Assembly: GCA_025058345.1 (NCBI GenBank)
Contig: JANXEN010000004.1
Location: forward strand, 50,929 to 114,928
DNA: 64,000 nt
Direction of reading: 5' to 3'
Origin: Sulfolobales archaeon
GTDB taxonomy: Archaea > Thermoproteota > Thermoprotei_A > Sulfolobales > NBVN01
Both the position numbers and the translations under genes were made by a program. This document shows positions 7,966 to 61,657 of this stretch, piece by piece; positions within the stretch are counted from its first letter, which is position 1, and each line of letters starts with the position of its first letter. The notes below the pieces were generated by a model. The model was not told the origin of the DNA. It did not search any database and saw nothing but the letters and a program-made list of their open reading frames with translations.

Positions 7966-8116
7966 TATATAGCTATTGCCGTACGGAATCGAAAATTTCG
8001 TATCCTACACCTCTAACATCACGTAATAAATTTCTTCATTAAGTTATAAATGTAATTATCAATGATGATTATCTGTTCGTGGTGTTAAGATTTTTAAATT
8101 TGATAAATAAAGTGTA

Positions 8117-13235: not shown

Positions 13236-13610
13236 ATGATTCCGTTGAGTCCAAGAGAACTTAAACGAACTCTCAAGAAGTTGGGCATAAATGTTGAGGA
13301 GTTGAATGAGGTCTCTGCCGTAATTCTAGAAACTAAGGACTCTGAAATAGTTATTGAGAACCCTCAGGTAGTGGTTTTCACCTCTCAAGGTCAGAAGATT
13401 TATCAAATTGTGAGTAAGGACGAGAAAGTCATAAGTAAAAAACCATCTATTGACGTATCTCAGGTTAAGTTCTCTGAAGATGACGTAAACTTCATTATGA
13501 GTCAAGCTAATGTTGACCGTGAGGTAGCAGTTCAAGTGTTAAAGGATGCTGACGGAGATATAGCTAAGGCATTAATTCTTGTTGATGAGAGAAAGTCAAG
13601 GAAGGTTTAA
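13236..13610 (+). CDS. nac: Nascent polypeptide-associated complex protein (archaeal NAC, with C-terminal UBA-like domain)
   Basis: SPRELKRTLKKLGINVEEL N-terminus, NAC beta-barrel region and a C-terminal VDREVAVQVLKDADGDIAKALI UBA-like helix bundle. Confidence 0.85.
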   Translation: MIPLSPRELKRTLKKLGINVEELNEVSAVILETKDSEIVIENPQVVVFTSQGQKIYQIVSKDEKVISKKPSIDVSQVKFSEDDVNFIMSQANVDREVAVQVLKDADGDIAKALILVDERKSRKV

Positions 13611-14315
13611 GGTAGCGTTTCTCAAATTACTGATTAACGTGTTTATGTCTTCAGTTAAAGATAGAATTAAAGGTACTCCTTCTCTATCAGCTAACTTAAC
13701 CGCTAGAGGATCTACCCTCTTAGGTCCGTGAAGTATTATCGTAGCTGGCTTAGCCGGCGCAACCCTCACAGCTATCATTGGGGATCTACCAGTACTCACT
13801 TTAGTGAAGACTAAGGCCCTTCTAGTATTCATGCCCATAATCTGCCAGAACTCGTTCCCGCTTAAGCCTTCAATAGCTTCTAAGCTATCTATTACCGTAT
13901 ACCCGTATATTTCATCCGTTGAAGATATGTATGAGTTTACTATAAATCCCTCAACGATGTTTACCAGTAAATCCAACCTTATTGGTGAGTTCAACTCTTT
14001 AACGTCAAGTATTGCAGTACTGTATAAAAGATTTAAATTTTTGGCTAATTCCTTAGTGACTATCCAACCTCGTTCACCATCAATTGTTAGAAGGGCATCA
14101 ACGTATTTCTTTATGAATCTAGCTCCTGGAGTCCTTCTATTTTTTTCATAATCACTTATGACACTGGCTGAAATCCCCATGATTCTGGCAATGTCTAACT
14201 GCGATGACTTAAAAATTTCTCTCCATTTCCTCAAGGAACTTCCGTAATTATTACTTAGGACCATATCTCCCGCAATCCTTTTAGCGATAAGCTCCTTAAG
14301 GTACTCGTTAACCAT
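13596..14315 (-). CDS. XRE-type HTH transcriptional regulator with uncharacterised C-terminal domain
   Basis: SSQLDIARIMGISASVISDYEKNRRTP helix-turn-helix, followed by a ~150-aa C-terminal domain conserved in archaeal regulators. Confidence 0.65.
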   Translation of the reverse strand: MVNEYLKELIAKRIAGDMVLSNNYGSSLRKWREIFKSSQLDIARIMGISASVISDYEKNRRTPGARFIKKYVDALLTIDGERGWIVTKELAKNLNLLYSTAILDVKELNSPIRLDLLVNIVEGFIVNSYISSTDEIYGYTVIDSLEAIEGLSGNEFWQIMGMNTRRALVFTKVSTGRSPMIAVRVAPAKPATIILHGPKRVDPLAVKLADREGVPLILSLTEDINTLISNLRNATLNLP

Positions 14316-15308: not shown

Positions 15309-16265
15309 TCACTTAGTAGATTGCTTTGACTTACCATTAAAGAGTTCTAATGAAGCTTTGACTATGGATTCACTGTTTAGTCCATAGAAATCTAGCAGCT
15401 CTCTAACACTCTTTGCTGACCTTCCATAACCTAAAACGCCGATAACTTTCATGGGAACTGGGTATCTTTGAGTGAGTATTTCAGCAATAGTTGAACCCAC
15501 GCCACCAAATACCGAGTGTTCTTCAATAGTTACTATCCTTCCACAATTCCGAGCAACCTTCTCTATAGCGCCCTCATCAGTTGGTTTTACATTAATTAAG
15601 TTAATTACTGTGGATTTTATGCCGTATTTCTTAAGTTTATGTGATGCCTCTAAGGCGTCTTGAAGAACTGGGCCAGCAGCTACGATAGCTAAATCACTTC
15701 CCTCCTCTAGGATGTATACATTACCAGGCCTGTATTCGTAATCATATTCATCAGTAATTGATGGTGAGTAGTCGCGTCCAACTCTGAAGTAGAGGGGACC
15801 CTTAACCTCCTTGATGATGACTGGTAAACTTCTCAAAATGTCTTTTACGTCCGCTGGCACTACGACTGACATGTTATGAATGACTCTCATTAAGGCTATA
15901 TCCTCAAGCGATTGATGACTTGATCCGTCAGGATGGTCGCTAAAGCCTGAGTGGGTTCCAATTATTTTAACATTTAAGTTCATTCTACCTAAAGTGTTTC
16001 TAATTTGCTCCCATGCTCTAGTAATGAACATTGAGAACGCACAGATAACTGGTACAGCACCTGCGGAAGCTAAACCAGCTGCAAAACTAACCATATGTTG
16101 TTCAGCAATACCTACGTTAAAGTACCTATCCGGGAACTTGCTGCCGAAGAGGTTTGCCCTAGTAGCTCTCCCAACATCAGCAGTAATTACAACTAAATCC
16201 GCCACTTCACTGCCTAATTCACATAGTACTGTACCAATAGCATCACGCGGTGTGTTAATCACCAT
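15309..16265 (-). CDS. Transketolase, C-terminal section (pyrimidine-binding and C-terminal domains)
   Basis: Motifs [18 protein letters not shown] and [17 protein letters not shown]. Sits directly downstream of the N-terminal section gene. Confidence 0.9.
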
Positions 16266-16267
16266 TA

Positions 16268-16933
16268 CTACTCAACTCTTTGGATGTGAGTATCCTCTAG
16301 TTGCTTAAGTCCTTTACCCCTCACAGTCTTAGCGAATATTACAGCCGGTTTCCTAGATCTAATCGCTCCATCTAAAGCCGATACGATACTCGCGACTGCA
16401 TGGCCGTCGCATAGGAAGACCTCCCACCCAACAGTTCTCCATATCAACGGCATATAATGCTTAGGTTTTACCTCAGATAATTTTCCATCTAATTGGTATC
16501 CATTAAAATCTATAATTACGATCAAGTTATCTAAACCCCTATGTACTGCATCCGTCATAGCCTCCCACACCTGACCCTCGTCCTGCTCACCATCACCCAT
16601 AACAACATAAACCCTACCTACACCCCCTCTGGACTTAATCCATGAGGCAACACCCATCCCGAAACTCAGTCCCTGCCCTAGACTGCCTGTAGACATATCA
16701 ACTCCAGGTATAGCTATGTCTGGATGTCCCTGAAGTATAGAATCCAGTGACTGCAACTTCATTAACTCCCCGTAATGTATCGACCCAATATCTGCTAGTA
16801 AAGCATATAGTGCCGGAGCTGCATGACCTTTACTGAGCACCAACCAATCTTTGGTTAATGGATCGCCACTCAGCCTGATATATCTCTTAAGAAGTACTGT
16901 TAAGATCTCAACACAACTTAATGTAGAACCCAT
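16268..16933 (-). CDS. Transketolase, N-terminal section (TPP-binding); true start probably upstream of the listed ATG
   Basis: Motifs [11 protein letters not shown] and [13 protein letters not shown]. The frame stays open to 17095 and encodes the family-typical N-terminal helix, but with no ATG/GTG/TTG (see findings). Confidence 0.85.
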
Positions 16934-17185
16934 GTGGAGGTTCTTTTCATAATGATGGATGTCGATTATTAGTTTTCTGACTTTCTCTGAAGTAAGTTCT
17001 AATTGGGTATATTCTTCTACTTTATATTTTGGAATTGCATCGCCTACACCAAGAATTATATGATACAGTTGCTGGGGTATATAACCTTTTTGTTTTTAAT
17101 TAATTAAATAAATTTCATTATCCATCAACGCATATAAGATGGAAATTAATTTAATTATAGTAAAGCATAATAACTAGACTTTATT

Positions 17186-26201: not shown

Positions 26202-26239
26202 ATCCTTCTCATCTAGTAACTCAGATATTTTAAGTCACC

Positions 26240-26572
26240 TCAACAATAACAATATTTTTTAACGCATTCAAATATAAATTTATTGTTTAAGGCATTCACG
26301 TATGAAACTTCCTCCATTCTACTCACTTTCCGCAATCTATGTAACGTGCAATATTCAACCACATGTAAAACTTCATTTCGACCTACTTCTACATCATTTA
26401 TAAGAGGTTCATAAGTTTTACGATTAGAAACTACCATATCCTTCACTTTAAAGTACTCATCTGAGTTAATGGGTCCTGACATGAAGATCTTAGATAAGTG
26501 ATTTATCGACTTTAATTTCAAGTCTTCAACTATATAGATATGAGTACGCATAACTTCACCTAATTTTTTCAT
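26240..26572 (-). CDS. Hypothetical protein (110 aa)
   Basis: ORF only; no motif recognised. Confidence 0.4.
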   Translation of the reverse strand: MKKLGEVMRTHIYIVEDLKLKSINHLSKIFMSGPINSDEYFKVKDMVVSNRKTYEPLINDVEVGRNEVLHVVEYCTLHRLRKVSRMEEVSYVNALNNKFIFECVKKYCYC

Positions 26573-32155: not shown

Positions 32156-32229
32156 GGGGCCGTAGTTTAGCTTGGTAGAATGCAGGGCTTGGGCCCCTGT
32201 GGTCCGGGGTTCAAATCCCCGCGGCCCCA
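32156..32229 (+). tRNA. tRNA-Pro (anticodon UGG)
   Basis: Acceptor stem GGGGCCG/CGGCCCC. T arm CGGGG-TTCAAAT-CCCCG. Anticodon arm CAGGG-CTTGGGC-CCCTG gives anticodon TGG with G37. Discriminator A; CCA not encoded. Confidence 0.9.
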
Positions 32230-32471
32230 CTAAGTGACTGAGGTTTCGGTAAGAACGATTAAGTCTACAGATATAGGTGGGTCGTAAGCCATCATCAAAA
32301 TATCCTGATTTGAGTAGTAGGAGGGTGATATTTTTAAGTAATTCCCTCCACTCTCATAAAATGGGTGGGCCCTTAATCAATTCTCTTATATATGGTTATA
32401 ACCCTGAATTGTCTCAAATGCTTCATGTGTAGATATACGTTAAAGATTTAGCAAGGCGGGTATATTTAAAG

Positions 32472-35347: not shown

Positions 35348-35648
35348 CTTCACAACGTTTAAAAATTATAGCTTTGTTGGACCTACGAACCTCCTAATCT
35401 GGTATAAATTGCATATATTTTTACTAATTTCGGTGTCGAAAACATTGAAACCGCCATTAAGGATTTATTAATCGAGTGGAACCACATATACCACTTAGGG
35501 ATTTTGGCCTAAGCATCGTTGAATAAATCATTCCTTGAGATAACTATTTTACTACCGACTCCATAGAGTTTTTAGATTGTGGTGATTAAGTATTAGGTAT
35601 GTCTACATATCGTGGGATAATGCAGTTAAGCTGTCCTACGAATTAGCT

Positions 35649-56714: not shown

Positions 56715-56894
56715 TCGTAGTTAACGTATAATAATGTTTTATACAGCAATCATTATCTAAATATAGTCAATTAAAAAATGTTTATAAGTTTTAACGGCAT
56801 ATAAATACATGGGGTTCTTATTATAGGGGATTCTAATTTATCTAAAGCGATAATACCTATAGGGGGATTAGGGACAAGACTATACCCCTTAACT

Positions 56895-60878: not shown

Positions 60879-61015
60879 TGCTAATCACTACCTCACCAAG
60901 CTTTACTATAGTATGATTACTTGCTATTTAACACTTTCTACTTTAAAAATTAATCTTAAGTCATTATAAGATCGTAGGTGGTTCCATCACTAGATTAATT
61001 AACTTCTACACATCT

Positions 61016-61657
61016 ATGATTGAGGGAAAATCATTGCATTTAGATGTTGTGAAGTTGATTTACGAGTTAAGTAAGGAAGAACATGAGAAACACATTAGGG
61101 ATTTAAATACTTATTGGGTTTCCGACCTAGTTAGGTGTTTACTGAAAAAAGATTATGAGGTGAAGTACCCAGAATTGAGTCTTAGGGATATCTTCATCCC
61201 CTACTACATCTCAGGCACCTTAATACATAAGGGGCTGCAGAGCATTCTGAAAGAGAAATTTGGTGAACGCGTAGAGACCGAAGTTGAAGGTGTTAAGGAG
61301 GTGCTACTTCCGGATGGAGGTAAGGTAATAGTTAAAGGTAGGGTTGATGCAATACTATTCAGCGAAGGCGTTAGGGTTGGACTAGAAATTAAGACCTCAA
61401 GGTCTGACTTAAACATCCCTCATGAGCAGCATTTAGAGCAAGTTATGATTTACAATTGGTTGATGGATCTACATCACTCCTTACTTATTTATATCACCTT
61501 AGATAGAGTCACGCAGTTTAGCGTGCTTGATAAGTTCTCTGAATCTGAAGTAGCGGATATAATAGTTAATGCGAAATATCCTAGGTATAGTTGGGAATGT
61601 AACTACTGCGTGTACGCAGTTATGTGCCCTTATAAAAGAGCTCTAGGCACTAAATGA
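61016..61657 (+). CDS. Cas4-family PD-(D/E)xK nuclease with Fe-S cysteines, stand-alone (no CRISPR/cas neighbours)
   Basis: N-terminal Cys (DLVRC), GRVDAI...GLEIKTS (D..ExK), QVMIYNWL (QhxxY) and the C-terminal CNYCVYAVMCP (Cx2Cx5C). Confidence 0.7.
   Translation: MIEGKSLHLDVVKLIYELSKEEHEKHIRDLNTYWVSDLVRCLLKKDYEVKYPELSLRDIFIPYYISGTLIHKGLQSILKEKFGERVETEVEGVKEVLLPDGGKVIVKGRVDAILFSEGVRVGLEIKTSRSDLNIPHEQHLEQVMIYNWLMDLHHSLLIYITLDRVTQFSVLDKFSESEVADIIVNAKYPRYSWECNYCVYAVMCPYKRALGTK

Follow-up and report, generated by a model that had tools for sequence, protein, structure and literature searches.

How does a cell produce a housekeeping enzyme from a gene that lacks an in-frame start codon? This question is raised by the gene for the N-terminal subunit of transketolase (tkt) in a 64-kb stretch of DNA from a Sulfolobales archaeon (GCA_025058345.1, contig JANXEN010000004.1, positions 50,929-114,928), which we refer to as the window and whose numbering we use throughout. 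The gene lies on the minus strand, as do all tkt features described below, and a listed open reading frame (ORF) of 221 amino acids (MGSTLSC..., 16268..16933) encodes the subunit apart from its N-terminal segment. Upstream of the ATG that opens this ORF (16933-16931), the frame is free of stop codons back to a TAA at 17096..17098, which forms its 5' bound, and the intervening in-frame stretch, KQKGYIPQQLYHIILGVGDAIPKYKVEEYTQLELTSEKVRKLIIDIHHYEKNLH, contains no ATG, GTG or TTG; its near-cognate codons are ATA 17080, CTG 17068, ATA 17059, ATT 17056 and ATT 17035. An ATG at 17040-17038 is offset by +1 from the transketolase frame, its G being the first base of an in-frame GCA. These observations come from a sequence-only reading of the window, and each of them was verified on the letters. 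We found that the displaced ATG belongs to a conserved, apparently unremarked out-of-frame Shine-Dalgarno (SD)-ATG element that opens a short overlapping ORF (mini-ORF), and we consider it plausible that ribosomes initiating there slip into the enzyme frame. Literature searches returned no description of either the 5' tkt mini-ORF or the clade of start-less relatives that shares it.

The same reading had placed the N-terminal helix typical of the family upstream of the first canonical start, and homology bears this out. The Pfam Transketolase_N match begins at residue 37 of the stop-to-stop ORF, which is 18 codons ahead of the listed Met, and the alignment to 6YAK, a solved split transketolase N-subunit, begins at Glu 17017-17015. 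The NCBI annotation gives a 255-aa protein (P0001) starting at ATT 17035-17033, and gene callers that demand canonical starts give the 221-aa form. The DNA itself appears reliable: a Logan assembly of SRR15826899 and a second NCBI metagenome-assembled genome (MAG), GCA_026413615.1, both carry the tkt 5' region without any change, and a third NCBI assembly, GCA_033582295.1, carries the same 30 nt 5' of the called start. The two other NCBI assemblies are independent, as a 1-nt indel elsewhere sets them apart from one another. The missing in-frame start of tkt is thus real and no artefact.

We then asked whether the arrangement is shared by relatives. Scans of GTDB species representatives and metagenomes yielded an orthologue sample of approximately 60 archaeal loci (designated by L numbers), in which at least ten species-level lineages with 68-82% protein identity share the missing start. 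These comprise the window, L009/L004, L010/L092/L178, L013, L014, L015, L089, L011/L093 and L012/L144, and in none of the 12 sequences of this clade is there an in-frame canonical start 5' of the motif G-D-[A/V/G]-[I/T]-P-K. From the Asp of this motif to a downstream His-Met-Gly-Ser the clade alignment is gapless once L089, which carries a 9-nt (three-codon) insertion, is excluded. Over the 29 codons that separate Pro-Lys from the listed ATG, the mean proportions of synonymous (pS) and nonsynonymous (pN) differences among ten lineages are 0.65 and 0.29, a ratio of 0.45, and the enzyme frame contains no stop in any of the ten; the other two frames contain 1-8 stops each, with ratios of 0.73 and 1.16. 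Synonymous sites between clade lineages are near saturation. Together with the homology, these data indicate that the helix-encoding segment ahead of the listed ATG (AIPKYKVEEYTQLELTSEKVRKLIIDIHHYEKNLH, 16934..17038) is translated in the enzyme frame.

To define what could direct ribosomes to this segment, we examined the DNA 5' of it across the clade. A TATA box, TTATATA (17078..17084), preceded by an A-rich stretch resembling a B recognition element, is near-invariant as TTATA.A in 11 clade sequences, and from the usual Sulfolobales distance of approximately 26 nt between TATA centre and transcription start, transcription is predicted to begin at about 17056-17052. Downstream of it lies GGTG (17047..17050), an SD-like core found in 12 of 12 clade sequences, followed 6 nt later by the displaced ATG (17038..17040), also invariant in the clade and the putative initiation codon. 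This ATG opens the +1 mini-ORF ATG CAA TTC CAA AAT ATA AAG TAG (MQFQNIK*, 17017..17040), within which C_CAA_AAT (17026..17032), a candidate -1 shift site with the Asn codon A_AAT in the A site, forms part of a TCCAAAA[T/C] string that is likewise invariant in all 12. As a whole, the block GGTGT(A)AGGCGATGnnAyTCCAAAA is unchanged at 22 of its 26 columns, following the pattern GGTG-6/7 nt-ATG-NNN-YTC-CAA-AAY; apart from the TATA box and the codons for His-Met-Gly-Ser (CATATGGG), no other stretch in 170 nt is as conserved. In the +1 frame, every clade member reads ATG NNN YTC CAA AAY and meets a stop 0-5 codons afterwards. The pattern also held in L178, which was fetched after it had been derived and in which the predicted block is intact.

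The only indel within the block is an extra A between GGTG and ATG (GGTGTAA in place of GGTGTA) in L009, L010, L013, L178 and L004, which shows the spacer to be non-coding. In the subclades concerned (L009/L004, L010/L178/L092 and L013), the extra A creates an in-frame TAA directly before GGC GAT, such that all that lies 5' of GGCGATG is non-coding in those lineages and the enzyme frame must be entered at or after that point. The sole start-like signal common to all clade members is GGTG, 6-7 nt and ATG, in the +1 frame, and GGTG stands 5-8 nt ahead of many canonical starts in the window.

Constraint on this element extends beyond the start-less clade. Using 57 unique Sulfolobales N-subunit genes, we determined the fraction of the major codon at 112 columns of conserved residues. 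The Asp of the N-terminal D-x-x-P motif is encoded by GAT in 52 of 53 genes, compared to GAT fractions of 0.61-0.77 at seven other Asp columns, and its Pro by CCA in 55 of 57, compared to CCA fractions of 0.16-0.70 at six other Pro columns; these two are the only columns above 0.95, and they overlap the +1 ATG and its CAA codon. A change from GAT to GAC would abolish the ATG and leave the protein unchanged, yet it is almost never seen across Sulfolobales genes. Similarly, enzyme-frame third positions at +2, +5, +8, +11 and +14 are conserved at 0.95, 0.88, 0.91, 0.96 and 1.00, whereas second positions at +4, +7 and +13 reach only 0.66, 0.55 and 0.75. Third positions that are more conserved than second positions carry the signature of a second constraint, acting in the +1 frame on ATG-x-[T/C]TC-CAA-[T/A]A[T/C]. 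The encoded pattern M-x-[F/L]-Q-[Y/N] is present in 53 of 56 sequences with a G-rich SD-like stretch 5' of it, and the constraint stops at mini-ORF codon 5, the mini-ORF itself ending 0-7 codons later across the order. At position +15, 54 of 56 sequences have T or C even though the enzyme residue that begins with this base differs (S, P, L, Y, Q). The constrained codons are situated close to the 5' end of the gene, a place where unusual codon constraints can operate, although such constraints would not obviously favour CCA over CCT or ATA over ATT.

In its features (a short ORF with an initiation signal of its own, an overlap with the start of the main gene and a conserved series of codons), this element resembles a regulatory mini-ORF. 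It also occurs where it is not needed for initiation: Sulfolobaceae, Ignisphaera and the AG1 group possess an ordinary in-frame ATG, in the first two a few codons upstream, in addition to the embedded +1 ATG, and its original role was therefore not the making of transketolase. In L017-L025, L104-L139 and other Sulfolobaceae loci, at the equivalent of window positions 17041-17024, a G-rich stretch lies 5-8 nt 5' of the embedded ATG. Their mini-ORFs include MEFQYQ* and MELQYH*, and synonymous sites of the host frame are frozen exactly there.

We infer from these signals the following route to the enzyme, which we favour tentatively and regard as possible rather than probable: initiation at ATG 17040-17038, followed by a -1 slip at C_CAA_AAT (17032-17026). 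The N-subunit mRNA would begin approximately 10-15 nt upstream of the ATG, as judged from the TATA box, and ribosomes would bind via GGTG (17050-17047) and initiate in the +1 frame. After Met-Gln-Phe-Gln, with the Asn codon AAT in the A site, a fraction of them would move back one base on C_CAA_AAT and continue in the enzyme frame as MQFQN-YKVEEYTQLE..., with the N-terminal helix intact and a predicted N-terminal peptide of MQFQNYKVEEYTQLELTSEK; those that do not slip would terminate at TAG 17019-17017. The initiating SD pairing 14 nt upstream may aid the slip, and so may a stop that immediately follows the Asn codon in some of the relatives.

Several features of the clade are in line with this route. 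The tkt frame is -1 relative to the mini-ORF (17040-17017) and open from 17095, and the combination of GGTG and ATG serves the mini-ORF frame only. The heptamer is invariant in all 12 sequences apart from the T/C wobble of the Asn codon and begins 14 nt after GGTG in every one of them; its A-site half, A_AAT, fits the X_XXY_YYZ consensus. Compared to all outgroups, which have CCA ATA, the clade has changed ATA to AAA, which converts C_CAA_TAT into C_CAA_AAY. In L011/L093, L012/L144 and L015, though not in the window, a +1 stop (AAC TGA or AAT TAA) directly follows the Asn codon, and any shift in these three lineages is therefore pinned to codon 5. An immediate -1 shift at the AUG, which would give a product beginning MAIPK..., is disfavoured because codons 3-5 of the +1 frame are constrained. 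The suggestion, made from the sequence alone, of a frameshift or slippage at the start gains support, as the displaced ATG with its GGTG is the most conserved part of the region and under nucleotide-level selection across the order.

Other points weigh against the proposed slip. C_CAA_AAY is not a canonical heptamer, as its P-site half, C_CAA, departs from the consensus and a P-site tRNA-Gln slipping from CAA to CCA would incur a central mismatch. No downstream hairpin or pseudoknot is conserved in the clade, the consensus fold reaching -4.3 kcal/mol with zero covariation; the same result disposes of a structure that would hide the ATG. While both the frame arrangement and the shift site are kept in all 12 clade sequences, the start-less loci outside the clade, L037, L101, L029/L126/L035, L032/L038 (Acidilobaceae) and L090, carry the non-slippery C_CAA_TAT, so the frameshift model does not generalise to them. 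CCA AAA could simply encode Pro-Lys, and GGTG...GATG is homologous to codons for Gly-Gly-Gly-Arg-Asp-Gly in Sulfolobaceae, such that its conservation may in part be inherited from coding sequence. GGTG-N5-8-ATG occurs 42 times in the window compared to 24 +/- 5 times in shuffled sequence, so that one occurrence taken alone carries no significance. Finally, given its presence beside normal starts, the primary function of the mini-ORF may be other than frameshift entry. More doubtful is a wider proposition, namely that an ancient five-codon +1 mini-ORF, overlapping the 5' end of Sulfolobales N-subunit genes, acts as a translational control element and has become, in several uncultured lineages, the sole point of ribosome entry after repeated loss of the start, with the enzyme made via a -1 shift within a few codons of initiation.

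A pair of Sulfolobaceae-like tkt genes from one metagenome provides an example of start loss. L107 has a normal leaderless ATG; at the position of that ATG, L090 (~1420-1510) has ATA, and with a 1-nt deletion in addition, the embedded +1 ATG is all that remains. The canonical start of L090 seems to have been lost independently and recently. We also considered and set aside several other explanations for the conserved block. A C/D-box small RNA over the tkt 5' end was rejected by eye, as GUGAUGA-like motifs occur in some lineages only and D boxes are absent, and a palindromic operator, TGGAATTCCA, was rejected in the same way because its symmetric positions do not covary. An in-frame TTG or GTG within cTTGGTG fails because this string lies in the +1 frame in the window and is followed by TAG, and in L009-type sequences lies in frame and is followed by TAA. 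Stop-codon readthrough was excluded since the frame relation of the upstream stop varies between subclades. The tkt leader has no Rfam match, the thiamine pyrophosphate riboswitch included, and the sole Rfam hit at the gathering threshold in the whole window is a tRNA-Pro.

Among the ways in which the enzyme could be made without a shift, the best supported is near-cognate initiation at the in-frame AUU 17035-17033, giving (M)PKYKVEEY... under the direction of a weaker SD-like element, AGGCGA. This is the start that NCBI calls in both the window genome and L004, and in-frame near-cognate codons are found 6-7 nt past GGTG in three further genes of the window (Lrp ATA, LarA ACG and phosphoribosyltransferase (PRTase) ATT). 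The ATT (17033..17035) lies 11 nt from GGTG and 5 nt from the end of the imperfect GGCG (17044-17041). However, in 8 of the 12 clade sequences, all of which otherwise keep the whole block, its place is taken by ACT, which is not a near-cognate codon (L010, L178, L015, L089, L011, L093, L012 and L144). An AUU start therefore cannot be the mechanism shared by the clade, and it would leave unexplained why an out-of-frame ATG, ideally spaced from GGTG, is preserved at a synonymous site. We consider this explanation unlikely.

Still less probable in our view is reinitiation, in which the displaced ATG would open a regulatory mini-ORF and ribosomes terminating at TAG 17019-17017 would restart in the enzyme frame at a non-canonical codon. 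Such a scheme accords with the retention of the mini-ORF throughout the order, including where a frameshift is unnecessary, and the mini-ORF stop always overlaps an in-frame NTA or NTG (AUAG in L009/L010/L178, AUAA in L014, CUGA in L011/L012/L093). The candidate codon is GTA 17020 in the window and ATA or CTG in relatives, and a start near 17020 would yield a complete N-terminal helix. The overlap is, however, a product of frame geometry, and near-cognates are not enriched in it (approximately 5/9 observed against 5/8 possible); GTA in the window and L013 and TTA in L015 and L089 each have two mismatches to AUG. Moreover, the stop shifts over 0-5 codons in the clade, and 0-7 across the order, while codons 3-5 stay frozen, which is the opposite of what reinitiation predicts.

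We give little credence to initiation on a leaderless or near-leaderless mRNA beginning at about 17059-17054, with AUA 17059 or AUU 17056 as the start of (M)ILGVGDAIPK.... The TATA box (17084-17078) does predict a 5' end right at ATT 17056, and GGT GTA GGC GAT corresponds by homology to codons of the Gly-rich N-terminus in Sulfolobaceae proteins. Yet such codons exist in the window only: in L011, L012, L014, L015 and L089, the interval from the predicted 5' end or in-frame stop to GAT is free of near-cognates, and in L009, L010, L013 and L178 the extra A places an in-frame TAA between the leaderless position and the gene. Leaderless initiation is also reported to depend strongly on a 5'-terminal AUG. 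The displaced ATG 17040 is itself not at a leaderless position relative to the predicted transcription start, as 37 nt separate it from the TATA box, compared to 34-38 nt in relatives. The AUU or AUA initiation put forward in the sequence-only reading is accordingly weakened for tkt, both by the ACT of most relatives and by the in-frame TAA that bars an upstream leaderless start in three subclades.

Erosion of the 5' end, which would leave only the 221-aa protein from ATG 16933 or a pseudogene in a drift-prone small genome, is very unlikely. Damaged starts do occur in several genes of the lineage, including a 4-nt insertion in the PRTase gene and substitutions at the start of the nucleotidyltransferase gene, and callers restricted to canonical starts output this short form, but the segment lost would be the N-terminal helix of the family and its 29 codons, stop-free in ten lineages with saturated synonymous sites, are under purifying selection, which argues against a genuinely truncated protein. 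A single-base assembly or sequencing error, whereby one G added after the ATG would give an ordinary ATG GCA ATT... start, can be dismissed given the independent assemblies described above and the same frame relation in 12 divergent sequences from different studies.

How does the proposed frameshift compare with known recoding and initiation systems? In fucA1, the alpha-L-fucosidase gene of Saccharolobus solfataricus, a programmed -1 frameshift takes place at a slippery stretch, A-AAA-AAT (PMC1616953, PMC8211752), and stop codons and SD sequences are listed among known frameshift stimulators (PMC1616953). The fucA1 and tkt genes come from the same archaeal order, and in both a short overlap joins a zero frame that soon reaches a stop to a downstream frame at -1, with an A-site AAT (Asn) preceded by A. 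They differ in that the fucA1 shift is experimentally proven, follows 81 codons and involves a full canonical heptamer with a putative downstream stem-loop, whereas the tkt shift is a proposal, would follow only 4-5 codons, directly after initiation, and involves a non-canonical C_CAA P site with no conserved structure. In Escherichia coli dnaX, the upstream SD-like element that stimulates the -1 frameshift lies approximately 10-14 nt ahead of the A-rich shift site, and GGTG of tkt lies 14 nt ahead of C_CAA_AAT. The dnaX site is A_AAA_AAG with a strong downstream hairpin and an internal SD-like element, while the element in tkt would serve both initiation and slippage. Bacterial infC, which starts at AUU, resembles tkt in having no canonical start, pipelines assigning ATT, ATA or CTG by homology; unlike the ATT of tkt, which is ACT in most relatives, the infC AUU is conserved and autoregulatory. 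Like the ORF of a leader peptide, the tkt mini-ORF is short, at 5-12 codons, has its own SD-like element and a conserved peptide, M-x-F/L-Q-Y/N, and overlaps the start of the main gene, although in Sulfolobaceae, and unlike the usual leader peptide, it lies inside the main ORF, out of frame and 3' of the canonical start.

Recoding has been suggested before for this gene pair. A translational frameshift joining the N- and C-terminal halves of transketolase in S. solfataricus and A. hospitalis is mentioned as a proposal in PMC3119797, citing Cobucci-Ponzano et al. 2010. Gene pair and archaeal order are the same, but that proposal, as given there, concerns the 3' end of the N-subunit gene and the present finding its 5' end. 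In the window, the junction (16263-16276) reads TAG-TA-ATG, the ATG of the C-terminal subunit gene (15309..16265) falling 2 nt past the N-subunit stop TAG; three codons 5' of this ATG, the C-subunit frame contains a TGA.

To our knowledge, fucA1 is the only programmed frameshift demonstrated in archaea, and the rules by which start codons are chosen in Thermoproteota derive from a few cultured Sulfolobaceae. A housekeeping enzyme gene that has kept no in-frame start codon in any member of a clade of hot-spring archaea is of interest in this setting. The nucleotide-level constraint across 57 genes, some of them from Sulfolobus, Acidianus and Metallosphaera species that are in culture and accessible to genetics, points to an overlapping mini-ORF that had gone unrecognised. 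If the proposed shift occurs, it would be the second documented programmed frameshift in archaea and the first to be located right at the beginning of a gene; if it does not, conserved non-canonical initiation and an unexplained overlapping mini-ORF would still be at hand.

The sequence-only reading had described the same situation at four further genes of the window, and a missing canonical start is indeed common to all five. This is strongest for the nucleotidyltransferase gene (56.8 kb), whose Pfam domain begins 17 codons before the first canonical start, leaving the essential GGxGTRL motif upstream of it. In the PRTase gene (35.6 kb) the domain begins 10 codons upstream and orthologues have approximately 20 more N-terminal residues; the case is more modest for Lrp (26.2 kb), whose helix-turn-helix domain begins 5 codons before the first ATG, and for LarA (8.0 kb) Pfam support is weak but orthologue support is present. 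A single mechanism for all five genes, by contrast, is ruled out, as orthologue comparison reveals mixed causes: Lrp, LarA and PRTase have an in-frame near-cognate codon at normal SD spacing, and in tkt, nucleotidyltransferase and PRTase a canonical start codon is present but out of frame.

The Lrp start region (26226..26241, minus strand) consists of GAGGTGA, 6 nt and an in-frame ATA (26228-26226), at the equivalent place of which the L005 orthologue has ATG. For LarA (7999..8011, minus strand), GGTG is followed by 6 nt containing an in-frame TAG and then by an in-frame ACG (8001-7999), which is kept in L004 with a 7-nt spacer; L004 has a further ACG where the window has ATG 7965. At the PRTase start (35579..35594, plus strand), GTG GTG is out of frame, an in-frame TGA is present and ATT 35592 lies 7 nt past GGTG. 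The orthologue in L177 has an in-frame GTG start, relative to which a 4-nt insertion in the window throws GTG GTG out of frame, and the 194-aa length of the NCBI call implies a CTG start at 35631. With three in-frame near-cognates placed at exact SD spacing, near-cognate initiation under SD direction looks usable in this organism and may be in use.

In the nucleotidyltransferase start region (56781..56826, plus strand, supported by Pfam and orthologues), a TATA box, TTTATAA (56781-56787), precedes an ATG (56809-56811) that sits at a leaderless position (TATA+22), +1 out of frame within cATGGGGtt, and opens a mini-ORF encoding MGFLL*. Among relatives, an in-frame TTG is found in L173, one base upstream of the ATG position, L172 also has a +1 ATG and L174 has no ATG in any frame; about six related lineages have truncated gene calls only. 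The ATG runs into GGGG (56809-56815), on which a tRNA-Gly reading GGG could re-pair perfectly one base back, restoring the frame to give MGVLIIGD.... L172 has ATGGGA, and the G run is thus not conserved.

Five cases in about 66 genes had been judged to be more than accident, and the excess is real: the NCBI pipeline itself assigns ATT, ATA and ATT starts to 3 of 21 genes in the same DNA, in addition to the CTG implied for PRTase. Degenerate or displaced starts are a property of these lineages and affect approximately 5-10% of genes in the stretches examined. Standard gene callers truncate about 5-10% of proteins in these MAGs, and the homology-based rescue by NCBI, which picks ATT, ATA and CTG starts, does not choose the conserved signal in at least tkt. 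If the wider proposition above is correct, these lineages would also use AUA, AUU, ACG and CUG starts at SD-defined positions in roughly 5-10% of genes.

A number of smaller observations concern start sites elsewhere. The LarA orthologue of L004 (10929-12167) is intact, aligning over 413 residues at 76% identity, yet it lacks a canonical start and was left uncalled by NCBI. In the window, 8005-8019 (minus strand) reads ATG TTA GAG GTG TAG, a four-codon ORF in the LarA frame that is followed by GAT ACG AAA... and is not kept in L004, where a 1-nt indel alters the frame. In two NCBI assemblies of the window organism, L002 and L003, the NAC-domain gene is called with a TTG start (121 aa) in one and an ATG start (124 aa) in the other, which reveals how unstable the annotation of starts is in this lineage; the same assemblies differ by one base in an A run 5' of a beta-CASP/metallo-beta-lactamase gene (~13426-13871). 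L005 represents another genus of the clade, and its NCBI annotation opens isopropylmalate synthase with ATT and transketolase with ATC. In the former gene (L005 6821-8060, on the minus strand of that locus), TTC stands in place of the TTG that starts its counterpart in the window, and GGGATC lies 23-24 nt after the TATA box in both, which suggests a leaderless AUC or AUU start. The only tRNA gene in the window is the tRNA-Pro (TGG) at 32156-32230 on the plus strand. Lastly, a gene at 60947-61657 with a weak PD-(D/E)XK nuclease match has GGTGG, 5 nt and an in-frame ATC (60977-60988, plus strand) 10 codons before its first ATG at 61016, and may represent a sixth case of a missing canonical start.

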